Made by a program: the position numbers and the translations under genes
Assembly: GCF_003334305.1 (NCBI RefSeq)
Contig: NZ_QOWS01000042.1
DNA: 12,912 nt
From: Escherichia coli
Lineage (GTDB): Bacteria; Pseudomonadota; Gammaproteobacteria; Enterobacterales; Enterobacteriaceae
Strand: one strand, 5' to 3'
Notes under the pieces: model-generated
The model's input: only the letters and a program-made list of their open reading frames with translations
What the model was told of the DNA's origin: nothing
The model's database searches: none
In this document: piece after piece, positions 9,568 through 12,912 of the stretch
Layout of the letters: each line of letters opens with the position of its first letter
Position numbering within the stretch: position 1 is the stretch's first letter

Positions 9568-11334
9568 ATGAACACCACACTGACACCCGCAGATCTCGAT
9601 CCCCGTCGGCAGGCCATGCTGCTGTACTTTCAGGGATACCGCGTAGCCCGCATTGCTGAAATGCTGGGCGAGAAAGTTGCAACCGTTCACAGCTGGAAGA
9701 AACGCGACAAGTGGGGTGACTATGGGCCGCTGGATCAGATGCAGCTCACCACCGCCGCACGTTACTGCCAGCTCATTATGAAGGAGCACAAAGAAGGGAA
9801 AGATTTCAAAGAAATTGACCTGCTGGCGCGCCAGTCGGAGCGCCACGCGCGGATCGGCAAGTTTAACAATGGCGGCAACGAAGCCGACTTAAACCCTAAC
9901 GTCGCCAACCGCAACAAAGGCCCGCGCCGTCAGCCGGAAAAGAATGTTTTCACCGATGAACAGATAGAGAAACTGGAAGAAATCTTCCATTCCTCCATGT
10001 TCAACTACCAGCGCCACTGGTGGGAAGCCGGAAAAACCAACCGCATCCGCAACCTGCTGAAGTCACGCCAGATCGGCGCGACCTTTTACTTTGCCCGTGA
10101 AGCCCTGATTGACGCCCTGCTTACCGGACGTAACCAGATTTTCCTTTCTGCCAGTAAGGCACAGGCTCACGTCTTTAAGCAGTACATCATCGACTTCGCC
10201 AAAGAAGTCGAGGTGGAGCTGAAAGGCGATCCGATGGTGCTTCCTAACGGGGCCACGCTTTACTTCCTCGGCACCAATGCCCGCACGGCGCAGAGTTACC
10301 ACGGCAACCTGTATCTGGATGAATATTTCTGGATACCGAAATTCCAGGAGTTGCGCAAAGTGGCTTCCGGTATGGCTATTCACAAGAAATGGCGACAAAC
10401 CTATTTTTCCACGCCATCCAGCCTGACCCACAGTGCTTATCCGTTCTGGTCCGGTGCGCTGTTCAACCGTGGACGCAACAAAGCTGACAAGGTGGACATC
10501 GACCTGTCCCACAGCAATCTGGCCCCCGGCCTGCTGTGCGCAGACGGGCAATACCGCCAGATAGTCACCGTGGAAGATGCGGTGCGCGGCGGCTGTAACC
10601 TGTTCGACCTCGACCAGCTGCGCATGGAGTACAGCCCGGACGAATACCAGAACCTGCTGATGTGCGAGTTCGTGGACGATCTCGCGTCCGTGTTCCCGCT
10701 CAGCGAACTGCAGGCGTGCATGGTGGACAGCTGGGAAGTCTGGACCGACTTTCATGCACTGGCCCTGCGCCCGTTTGGCTGGCGCGAAGTGTGGATCGGT
10801 TATGACCCGGCAAAAGGTACGCAGAACGGCGACAGTGCCGGATGCGTGGTGGTGGCTCCGCCAGCCGTGCCGGGTGGTAAGTTCCGCATTCTTGAGCGTC
10901 ACCAGTGGCGCGGGATGGACTTCCGCGCCCAGGCTGACGCCATCAAAAAACTGACCGAACAGTATAACGTGACCTATATCGGTATCGACTCGACCGGCGT
11001 CGGTCACGGGGTTTACGAGAACGTGAAAGCGTTTTTTCCTGCTGTCCGGGAGTTTGTCTATAACCCCAACGTTAAAAACGCCCTGGTACTCAAGGCCTAC
11101 GACATTATCAGCCACCGCCGTCTGGAGTTTGACGCCGGGCACACCGACATTGCGCAGTCATTTATGGCAATCCGTCGCGCTACCACTGCCAGTGGCAACC
11201 GCCCGACCTATGAAGCCAGCCGCAGCGAAGAAGCCAGCCATGCCGATCTGGCCTGGGCAACAATGCACGCACTGTTTAACGAACCGCTGCAGGGCGAGTC
11301 CGCCAATACCAGCAATATTGTGGAGATTTTTTGA
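9568..11334 (+). CDS. P: Terminase large (ATPase) subunit, P2 gpP-like
   Basis: 588 aa (P2 gpP is ~590) starting MNTTLTPADLDPRRQAMLLYFQGYRVARIAEMLGEK. It diverges from O and is followed by Q with a TGATG stop/start overlap. Confidence 0.9.
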   Translation: MNTTLTPADLDPRRQAMLLYFQGYRVARIAEMLGEKVATVHSWKKRDKWGDYGPLDQMQLTTAARYCQLIMKEHKEGKDFKEIDLLARQSERHARIGKFNNGGNEADLNPNVANRNKGPRRQPEKNVFTDEQIEKLEEIFHSSMFNYQRHWWEAGKTNRIRNLLKSRQIGATFYFAREALIDALLTGRNQIFLSASKAQAHVFKQYIIDFAKEVEVELKGDPMVLPNGATLYFLGTNARTAQSYHGNLYLDEYFWIPKFQELRKVASGMAIHKKWRQTYFSTPSSLTHSAYPFWSGALFNRGRNKADKVDIDLSHSNLAPGLLCADGQYRQIVTVEDAVRGGCNLFDLDQLRMEYSPDEYQNLLMCEFVDDLASVFPLSELQACMVDSWEVWTDFHALALRPFGWREVWIGYDPAKGTQNGDSAGCVVVAPPAVPGGKFRILERHQWRGMDFRAQADAIKKLTEQYNVTYIGIDSTGVGHGVYENVKAFFPAVREFVYNPNVKNALVLKAYDIISHRRLEFDAGHTDIAQSFMAIRRATTASGNRPTYEASRSEEASHADLAWATMHALFNEPLQGESANTSNIVEIF

Positions 11335-12368
11335 TGGGAAAGAGTAAGAAGAACCGCGCTGCGTCGACGAAACAGATCCAGCATAAAAGCCAGACTTCAG
11401 CCGAAGCATTCAGCTTCGGTGATCCCGTTCCTGTTCTGGACCGCCGCGAACTGCTGGACTATGTGGAATGCGTACAGATGGATCGTTGGTACGAGCCGCC
11501 TGTGAGTTTCGACGGACTGGCGCGAACCTTCCGCGCCGCCGTGCATCACAGCTCACCGATTGCAGTGAAGTGCAACATTCTGACCAGCACCTACATCCCT
11601 CACCCGCTGCTCAGCCAGCAGGCTTTTTCGCGTTTTGTACAGGACTATCTGGTTTTTGGTAACGCCTACCTGGAGAAACGCACAAACCGCTTCGGTGAAG
11701 TTATCGCCCTTGAGCCTGCACTGGCAAAATACACCCGACGCGGGTTAGACCTTGATACCTACTGGTTTGTGCAATACGGCATGACTACGCAGCCGTATCA
11801 GTTCACGAAAGGCAACATTTTTCATCTGATGGAACCGGACATCAACCAGGAGATCTACGGCCTGCCTGGTTATCTTTCTGCCATTCCGTCAGCTCTGCTC
11901 AACGAGTCCGCCACGCTGTTCCGCCGCAAGTATTACATTAACGGCAGTCATGCAGGCTTCATCATGTACATGACCGATGCAGCGCAGAACCAGGAGGATG
12001 TGAACAACCTCCGCAACGCGATGAAAAGCGCCAAAGGTCCTGGTAACTTCCGTAACCTGTTTATGTACTCGCCTAACGGTAAAAAGGACGGGCTTCAGAT
12101 TATCCCGTTGTCAGAAGTGGCGGCGAAGGATGAGTTCCTGAATATCAAGAACGTGAGCCGGGACGACATGATGGCGGCGCATCGTGTGCCGCCACAAATG
12201 ATGGGGATAATGCCTAATAATGTCGGGGGGTTTGGGGATGTGGAGAAGGCCAGTCGCGTATTTGTACGTAATGAATTAACGCCCTTGCAAAAAAGGCTAC
12301 AAGAGCTGAACGACTGGCTGGGCGAAGAAGTGATTAAATTTACGCCCTATATTCTTTCAGAAGAATAA
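11334..12368 (+). CDS. Q: Portal protein, P2 gpQ-like
   Basis: ATG at 11334 (the ORF-track TTG at 11331 is one codon upstream) gives 344 aa, the length recalled for P2 gpQ, starting MGKSKKNRAASTKQ. Its start overlaps the P stop. Confidence 0.9.
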   Translation: MGKSKKNRAASTKQIQHKSQTSAEAFSFGDPVPVLDRRELLDYVECVQMDRWYEPPVSFDGLARTFRAAVHHSSPIAVKCNILTSTYIPHPLLSQQAFSRFVQDYLVFGNAYLEKRTNRFGEVIALEPALAKYTRRGLDLDTYWFVQYGMTTQPYQFTKGNIFHLMEPDINQEIYGLPGYLSAIPSALLNESATLFRRKYYINGSHAGFIMYMTDAAQNQEDVNNLRNAMKSAKGPGNFRNLFMYSPNGKKDGLQIIPLSEVAAKDEFLNIKNVSRDDMMAAHRVPPQMMGIMPNNVGGFGDVEKASRVFVRNELTPLQKRLQELNDWLGEEVIKFTPYILSEE

Positions 12369-12376
12369 TTCCGAAC

Positions 12377-12727
12377 TTATTTGTTTCTTCTTTGTTCACG
12401 CCTTGTCTTGGCTTCGATAAGGCGTTGAGGTTCAGTGTAAAGCCGTTCTAAAAAAAGATAGGTAAAATCTTCAAGATCCTCAGCAGCAGCTTTATCCAAA
12501 ATACCTTCATGCGCTCCATCATTTCCGTCATCTTTAACGCATTCAGCTAGTTCCCTTAAAGCTTCAGGCAGTAGATGATTATCAAATAACCACTCCATTC
12601 TTAACCCTAGGCTTCTCCTTATTTTTTGCGCAGGCCCTTGCTCCCCATCAGGAAGAAGTCCTTTTGTGGCATAATCAAGGCAAAGCCTAAACATGGTTGC
12701 TGCTGCATTATAACAACCTATAGCCAA
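12377..12727 (-). CDS. Hypothetical small acidic protein in low-GC cargo next to the portal gene; possibly HEPN/DUF4145-like (speculative)
   Basis: 116-codon ORF in ~40-45% GC DNA, convergent with Q (stops 8 bp apart). The TTG at 12727 is preceded by GAGGAAGGGG with an 8-nt spacer; the first ATG is at 12694. No homologue recognised with confidence; the motif GNDGAHEG and a helical, acidic composition are the only hints. Confidence 0.5.
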   Translation of the reverse strand: MAIGCYNAAATMFRLCLDYATKGLLPDGEQGPAQKIRRSLGLRMEWLFDNHLLPEALRELAECVKDDGNDGAHEGILDKAAAEDLEDFTYLFLERLYTEPQRLIEAKTRREQRRNK

Positions 12728-12865
12728 ACATTTCGCCCCTTCCTCATATGCACTATTGATATGCTCAGGTAAGAACTCTGGTGGCTCCTCTACTGCTAAG
12801 TCTGCCGGTGATATAGGCCTAACAACCTCTGCAACTGATCCTACCCACGTAATATGGACACAGGC

Positions 12866-12912
12866 CTAAGCGAGGTTCTTGTTTTCAAATTGTTCCGGAC
12901 TGAGGCCGCCAC
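12866..12912 (-). CDS. 3' end of a further minus-strand gene that continues beyond the window end (product unknown)
   Basis: The same minus frame is open from the window edge to a TAG at 12868..12866, reading ...GGLSPEQFENKNLA*. Only 15 codons are visible, so the evidence is weak. Confidence 0.25.
   Translation of the reverse strand, partial: GGLSPEQFENKNLA

Follow-up and report, generated by a model that had tools for sequence, protein, structure and literature searches.

Near the end of a stretch of Escherichia coli DNA of 12,912 nucleotides (the window), a small open reading frame on the minus strand can be read from a TTG codon, and upstream of this codon the same frame stays open until it meets a TAG that closes another open reading frame entering from beyond the edge. 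The question raised by this locus is whether the small open reading frame encodes a stand-alone protein or part of a larger one, and what the DNA in front of it represents. The original prediction placed the region in a multi-gene minus-strand cassette and offered three mechanisms for the open frame, namely translation from the TTG with the help of a Shine-Dalgarno (SD)-like sequence, one longer gene split by a nonsense codon, or a non-canonical start.

Reading frame and features of the junction region

Translation of 12300-12912 puts the minus-strand TTG at 12727-12725 and a further in-frame ATG at 12694-12692. A scripted codon list shows that the 46 sense codons at 12865-12728 (minus strand) are free of stops and of ATG, GTG and TTG, with ATT at 12853, ATA at 12814 and ATC at 12760 as the sole near-cognate codons, and that the TAG at 12868-12866 (minus strand) closes an upstream peptide ending in ...GGLSPEQFENKNLA; in all of these details the original prediction was accurate. 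The SD-like GAGGAAGGGG occupies 12745-12736 (minus strand), and its purine run stops 8 nt short of the TTG. From the local base composition, the probability of 46 stop-free codons is about 0.05, and that of 46 codons both stop-free and start-free about 0.003; the openness of the frame is mildly non-random. It arises because 36 of the codons (12835-12728) are internal to a real gene and the other 10 (12865-12836) are the terminal repeat of an IS3 element. The features of the region are listed below.

12866-12912, minus strand: last 14 codons and TAG of the IS3 transposase OrfB (...GGLSPEQFENKNLA, then the stop), the "upstream gene" of the original prediction (translation of the complete IS3 copy)
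12837-12912, minus strand: terminal 76 nt of IS3, including the terminal inverted repeat ...GGGTAGGATCA (A7 element, RefSeq, NCBIfam)
12833-12836, no strand: deletion junction, AACT on the plus strand (three-way alignment of the A7 junction, the A28 intact gene and the A28 IS3 left flank)
12728-12835, minus strand: native part of the open spacer, codons Val81-Cys116, comprising the linker end and the first HEPN helix (family alignment, AlphaFold2 helix 104-118)
12377-12835, minus strand: 3' remnant, codons 81-232 and stop, of a 232-aa zinc-ribbon/HEPN (DUF4145) PD-T7-4/RAZR-like gene
12736-12745, minus strand: SD-like GAGGAAGGGG, coding for Glu111-Glu112-Gly113(-Ala) (codon position, alignment of 24 homologues)
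12377-12727, minus strand: 116-aa RefSeq CDS WP_072689636.1, called from the TTG that is internal Leu117 (RefSeq annotation, family alignment)
12509-12535, minus strand: HEPN catalytic-type motif K181-DDGNDGA-H189, with the Lys codon at 12535-12533 and the His codon at 12511-12509 (family alignment)
11331-12368, plus strand: P2-type portal gene gpQ (annotation, Pfam Phage_portal)

The stops of the portal gene (12368, plus strand) and of the remnant (12377, minus strand) converge 8 nt apart, with no terminator-like hairpin predicted between them (12368-12377). A promoter and terminator scan of 12200-12912 returned nothing, and no promoter-like site was found between the IS3 end and the remnant. 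The remainder of the window consists of late genes from a P2-like prophage, which encode tail fibre, baseplate, lysis, head, terminase and portal functions.

The upstream open reading frame

The window is 100% identical to positions 3595888-3608799 of the chromosome of E. coli strain A7 and is the entire 12,912-bp draft contig QOWS01000042.1, which ends inside a 1258-bp IS3. The upstream open reading frame runs off the window edge because this short-read draft contig breaks inside a repeated IS element. That a reading frame enters from beyond the window was rightly foreseen; it is the C-terminus of OrfB, cut by the contig edge. The complete element in A7 (locus L001, 6468-7725) is 1258 bp long, encodes OrfA and OrfB and carries TGATC(C/T)TACCCA terminal repeats. 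Its ends read TGATCCTACCCA... and ...TGGGTAAGATCA and match at 26 of the first 40 terminal positions, as imperfect repeats that begin with TG and end with CA. Translation of this complete copy shows that OrfB terminates in ...HSWCGGLSPEQFENKNLA (or, with a longer ending shown, ...WCGGLSPEQFENKNLA) directly before its stop, which lies 30 nt from the IS3 end; past the stop another 10 codons (ACVHITWVGS) are open, up to where the element ends. RefSeq labels the gene "IS3-like element IS3 family transposase", a joined CDS with a programmed frameshift. The NCBIfam model transpos_IS3 matches it with an E value of 4.7e-103 (345 bits against a cutoff of 160), as do Pfam HTH_Tnp_1, rve and related domains, and E. 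coli genomes contain the 76-nt IS3 end at 12,803 sites, annotated as IS3 transposase. The element resembles known IS3 in its length of 1258 bp, its TG...CA repeats, its OrfA and OrfB with a programmed -1 frameshift and its DDE (rve) transposase. Unlike a typical IS3, however, the A7 copy has no 3-bp target-site duplication around it, the flanks being AAC and CAT; the duplication is missing because a deletion replaced one flank, as discussed below.

The intact gene and its family

What lies on the other side of the junction becomes apparent from complete genomes. A megablast search with 12369-12912 as the query against 5,426 complete E. coli genomes gave a single full-length match, the strain A7 chromosome, while 42 other complete genomes matched positions 1-468 of the query only (window 12369-12836). 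Nearly all of these (41 of the 42) also matched, over 80% or more of its length, an adjacent query of 532 nt made up of the gene's 5' part and the region upstream, and the remaining genome matched all of the 5' coding part and diverged further upstream. Among the 5,426 genomes the IS3 junction is thus carried by A7 only. RefSeq annotates a DUF4145 protein at this locus in the 42 genomes, and in LF82 and A28 its length is 232 aa. In those two strains and about 40 more, the sequence identical to window 12377-12835 runs on upstream as part of a 699-nt gene (WP_000245245.1); the gene has its own ATG and an AGGAG Shine-Dalgarno sequence and stands alone in intact prophages. The predicted multi-gene cassette is not borne out by this gene or by the junction itself, which is an IS end beside a deletion.

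The 36 codons before the TTG are 100% identical to codons 81-116 of the 232-aa protein, the TTG at 12727 being Leu117 and the ATG at 12694 being Met128, both of them internal positions of the alignment. The homologues carry 116 further codons ahead of the TTG; they do not start at the equivalent of 12727 or 12694, and they are not fused to anything like the upstream open reading frame. The spacer, for which an unrelated intergenic origin had also been entertained, is mostly codons 81-116 of the intact gene. The suspicion that the open frame is meaningful and that the small protein is a domain of a larger one was well founded, given the additional 116 codons in homologues and a Pfam DUF4145 match that starts before the TTG, but all three of the mechanisms offered for it fail. 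That match (PF13643, E value 2.9e-7) covers residues 44-133 of the 162-aa open frame that begins upstream of the TTG, and a DUF4145 match is on record in Pfam for nearly all homologues.

The family is large and uniform in length. The best 120 of 603 homologue matches in a 90%-clustered set are nearly all 228-245 aa long with about 100% query coverage, and at 50% clustering there are 1790 family representatives with a median length of 233 aa. In 24 diverse homologues the cysteines of an N-terminal zinc ribbon of the form CxxC...CxxC (C8, C11, C46 and C49) are invariant, as are P99, P103, I106, E112, G113, C116 and M128 and, within a C-terminal motif C-(V/I)-K-D-D-G-N-D-G-A-H, residues K181, G184, N185, D186, G187, A188 and H189. 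The Cys4 ribbon is present in 229 of 266 family sequences, and the residue eight positions before the histidine is lysine in 158 and arginine in 51 of the 220 relatives that carry the motif. An AlphaFold2 model of the intact protein (pLDDT 84) has a beta-rich N-terminal domain and an all-helical C-terminal domain, the latter agreeing with the all-helical HEPN fold, and places a helix at residues 104-118 over the Val81-Cys116 stretch.

Within the HEPN superfamily DUF4145 is a recognized branch with catalogued fusions to zinc ribbons (Anantharaman et al., 2013; PMC3710099). The K-x7-H motif of the 232-aa protein differs from the canonical R-x4-6-H of the superfamily; the invariant K181 occupies the position of the catalytic arginine in HEPN RNases, including R146 of RAZR. 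No NCBIfam model covers the intact protein or either of its two LF82 neighbours, and the PHROGs match is only to "DNA binding protein" (phrog_1305), which is uninformative. A promoter scan of the native upstream region in LF82 gave just one plus-strand site, at chance level.

Relationship to PD-T7-4 and RAZR

The PD-T7-4 system was reportedly described by Vassallo and colleagues in 2022. It is the sole PADLOC match for the intact protein (E value 1.2e-6, 26 bits), the alignment running from residues 36-200 against profile positions 39-165 of 211 and covering the first CxxC through the catalytic motif. PD-T7-4 is also matched by eight of 10 diverse relatives, with E values from 4e-3 to 9e-13, as their only or best PADLOC match. 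The system has since been renamed RAZR, for ring-activated zinc-finger RNase, a protein with a zinc finger and a DUF4145/HEPN domain (Zhang et al., 2026; PMC13017515). RAZR forms a 24-mer around rings of phage portal or Erf-like proteins, which is followed by non-specific RNA cleavage; specificity is set by the zinc-finger domain, the linker and higher-order oligomerization are essential, and the catalytic residues are R146 and H154 (PMC13017515).

RAZR and the intact relatives are alike in having an N-terminal Cys4 ribbon, a linker, a C-terminal DUF4145/HEPN domain and a basic residue followed by x7-His, so that the spacing of K181 and H189 is that of R146 and H154; both are also single-gene and carried on mobile elements. 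They differ in length (232 aa against about 211 aa for RAZR), in the catalytic-type residue (Lys181 against Arg146) and in location, since the intact gene lies near the portal gene in a P2 hotspot and PD-T7-4 "often overlaps an integrase gene". The RAZR structures 9Y9C and 9Y6U were not returned by a profile search or by a Foldseek search of the PDB, and the relationship therefore draws on the moderate PADLOC score together with the shared architecture. In a search of representatives of 1.84 billion proteins the best 150 matches were all close family, with no canonical RAZR among them. Since the PD-T7-4 match is weak (E value of 1e-6), the family is considered a sister family and not an orthologue. 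From the profile match and domain order we conclude that the intact protein is a candidate RAZR-like single-gene defence protein of this sister family, with a consistent but remote homology that falls short of clear membership in RAZR proper. By analogy with RAZR it would probably act by binding a phage ring protein and then cleaving RNA non-specifically, leading to abortive infection. The copy in the window differs from RAZR in that the zinc ribbon is gone along with the missing codons 1-80.

Origin of the junction

Comparison with strain A28 shows how the junction could have come about. In A28 (locus L009) the order is portal gene, intact 232-aa gene, the end of P2 homology (about 255 nt upstream), a 433-aa gene, IS3, and then the same right flank as in A7; A7 is equivalent to A28 minus L009 20469-22625, a segment of about 2.16 kb that directly abuts the IS3 end. 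The A7 genome lacks the first 240 nt of the gene, and nothing beyond IS3 in A7 matches the LF82 prophage. The AACT at window 12833-12836 is common to the gene and to the old left flank together with the first base of IS3, and since both sides share it the breakpoint is ambiguous within 4 nt; in a BLAST comparison of L001 with L009 the two matches overlap at L001 6465-6468. The right-hand IS3 junction of A7 is base for base that of GE3 and A28, and in GE3 the IS3 lies within an ssrA-linked island.

We regard it as highly probable that 12728-12912 is the junction between an IS3 and a truncated RAZR-like defence gene, that it came from an IS3-adjacent deletion, and that the remnant is a pseudogene. 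In the lineage of A7 and of the window contig, about 2.16 kb next to a resident IS3 end would have been deleted, and with it codons 1-80, the promoter, the Shine-Dalgarno sequence, the cos-like site and the neighbouring 433-aa gene. The sequence shows the IS3 end joined to codon 81, with the OrfB TAG falling by chance in the frame of the remnant; this frame is open through the IS3 terminal repeat and the 36 retained internal codons, and the first ATG, GTG or TTG in it is the TTG of Leu117, which gene callers pick as a start. The direction of the change, from an A28-like arrangement to that of A7, is favoured by parsimony. Judging from the sequences of the junctions, the deletion may have been made by the transposase, by microhomology-mediated illegitimate recombination, or by insertion followed by recombination between two IS3 copies.

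A second disruption of the gene was observed in contig RZUT01000105.1 (GCA_004005775.1; locus L007, 1-181), where the end of ISSen4, also of the IS3 family, is fused near window 12787/12788. This independent break lies about 48 nt further into the gene than the break in A7, gives the same called 116-aa open reading frame, and is on a contig that likewise ends in the IS. The two IS breaks within 48 nt were considered as an insertion hotspot, an idea rejected as an ascertainment effect: the proximity follows from a look-up by the exact 116-aa product, since any break within codons 55-116 gives that open reading frame. A candidate third junction in the ENA metagenome contig ERZ809539 (NODE_4768; locus L008, 1-60) was also rejected as a Nextera-adapter chimera, in which the gene interior is joined to ...TCGTCGGCAGCGTCAGATGTGTATAAGAGACAG.

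Alternative readings of the locus

The reading closest to the current annotation is that the 116-aa open reading frame is a genuine stand-alone DUF4145 protein, started at the TTG at 12727 with GAGGAAGGGG as its SD sequence, the openness upstream being chance. RefSeq/PGAP does treat WP_072689636.1, a "DUF4145 domain-containing protein", as a normal CDS not marked as a pseudogene, an SD-like run of purines lies 8 nt in front of the TTG, and the 116-aa product still matches Pfam DUF4145. We nevertheless hold this reading to be very improbable, since the TTG is an internal leucine codon preceded by 36 further codons of the gene, full-length homologues are about 230 aa long, no promoter-like site lies upstream, and the exact 116-aa product is found just where the gene is broken (by IS3 in A7 and by ISSen4 in L007) or in the one adapter-chimeric contig. 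The SD-like sequence codes for conserved Glu111-Glu112-Gly113, the latter two being invariant, and it is purine-rich because these residues are encoded there and not for ribosome binding. A stand-alone fragment would also be without HEPN helix 104-118 of the model. The 116-aa fragment could still arise if transcription read through from the transposase gene and the chance SD-like sequence and TTG were used. Non-canonical starts fare no better, as the ATT at 12853 lies in the IS3 repeat and the ATA at 12814 and ATC at 12760 are internal codons of the intact gene. The last of the mechanisms, in which the upstream and small open reading frames are one gene cut by the TAG through a nonsense mutation, a sequencing error or a fusion made by programmed or suppressor read-through, has next to no chance of being correct. 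It draws on the fact that OrfB and the remnant share one frame with the TAG at 12868-12866 as the sole stop between them, but such agreement has a 1-in-3 probability by chance. The upstream open reading frame is the C-terminus of an IS3 transposase found in thousands of copies with the same TAG and terminal repeat, intact homologues have a zinc ribbon upstream and no transposase, and the occurrence of the junction in both the finished A7 genome and the draft assembly means that it is not an assembly artefact.

With the locus taken as an IS3 end beside a truncated gene, there is also the question of whether a simple insertion of IS3 into the gene, or homologous recombination between two IS3 copies, made the junction in place of a deletion from a resident IS3. 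This we consider unlikely, with more in its favour than the readings above: IS3 is abundant in the island, A28 and GE3 each hold several copies there in the same orientation, which makes recombination feasible, and insertion followed by recombination between IS3 copies would leave an identical final sequence. The absence of a target duplication and of the 5' part of the gene from the genome, however, excludes a simple insertion, and the right junction is the same as in GE3 and A28, with the lost segment being exactly the A28 DNA from the interior of the gene to the IS3 end. The resident-IS3 deletion is accordingly retained as the preferred origin. As to the product of that deletion, the remnant is without codons 1-80, and the zinc ribbon, most of the linker, the promoter and the ribosome-binding site are gone, while the catalytic-type motif K181-x7-H189 is kept. 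On the structural model, a product started at Leu117 would miss HEPN helix 104-118, and one started at Met128 would additionally lose half of the next helix; by comparison with RAZR, the remnant would be unable to sense a trigger or to oligomerize. We infer that the remnant is most likely a non-functional pseudogene without its sensor and oligomerization domain. A contrary possibility, which we judge to be very doubtful, is that the HEPN-only remnant is not inert and, more broadly, that the Lys-type RAZR-like family is repeatedly inactivated by IS elements as costly. If so, a HEPN fragment lacking the zinc ribbon might interfere with full-length RAZR-like proteins or act apart from them. The gene adjoins the portal gene of its own prophage, and portals are among the ring proteins sensed by RAZR; two independent disruptions by IS3-family elements have been seen.

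The P2 hotspot and the neighbouring island

P2-like phages carry a cos-proximal defence hotspot between gpQ and gpA (Rousset et al., 2022; PMC9122126). The portal gene gpQ marks one edge of this hotspot, and the window keeps the portal side only. In LF82 the order is portal gene, DUF4145 gene, a cos-like motif, three small genes, DinI and the replication endonuclease gene gpA. Because the cos-like GGCGTGGCGGGGATAC (locus L002, 6821-6836, minus strand) is found just upstream, the DUF4145 gene falls between cos and the portal gene. As in the tin/old locus hotspot of P2, the intact gene sits beside gpQ, and in LF82 between gpQ and gpA, as hotspot cargo. GGCGTGGCGGGGATAC was not found in either of the two A7 loci searched (L001 and L004), and the A7 remnant has therefore apparently lost cos and all early genes. 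Compared with P2, the prophage of A7 and A28 is a remnant with late genes only, its P2 homology ending about 255 nt upstream of the gene at ssrA-island DNA.

Further genes of interest lie in the surrounding island. To the right of IS3, A7 holds a complete PD-Lambda-4 system (L001 8390-12241 and 12287 onward; A28 L009 24547-29190), which places the IS3 within an ssrA-linked defence island. Of the two PD-Lambda-4 subunits, A (1283 aa) matches at full length with 2532 bits and B matches with an E value of 2e-164, and both are named "hypothetical protein" in RefSeq. In A28 the module of IS3 and PD-Lambda-4 occurs twice, as an IS3-bounded direct duplication of about 10.5 kb (L009 22626-33160 and 33160-40468), and in A7 it occurs once. 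The 433-aa hypothetical protein encoded in A28 between the intact DUF4145 gene and IS3 (L009 21132-22433) has a C-terminal ...ARNRSAHAKH... that resembles an R-x4-H HEPN motif, and PADLOC gave no match for it; its gene has been wholly removed from A7 by the same deletion. Elsewhere in A7, between ssrA and ogr (L004 10268-11183), are a 257-aa protein with a reverse-transcriptase domain and a 57-aa open reading frame. This ogr-proximal pair, next to the tmRNA gene, may be retron-type cargo or a remnant of it.

Significance

The junction is ordinary biology, an IS end beside a truncated, putative prophage defence gene at a contig edge. WP_072689636.1 is the tail of this putative defence gene, left by an IS-linked deletion; the appropriate label for it is pseudogene, and it should not be read as a stand-alone small protein or an operon member. 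The locus provides a documented pseudogenized defence gene in the P2 hotspot; in a survey, pseudogenized defence genes were rare, making up about 2% of P2 pseudogenes (bioRxiv 10.64898/2026.02.27.708500). It also draws attention to a large sister family of RAZR (1790 representatives of about 230 aa, with K/R-x7-H), the intact members of which, such as WP_000245245.1 of LF82, are candidates for a role in defence.
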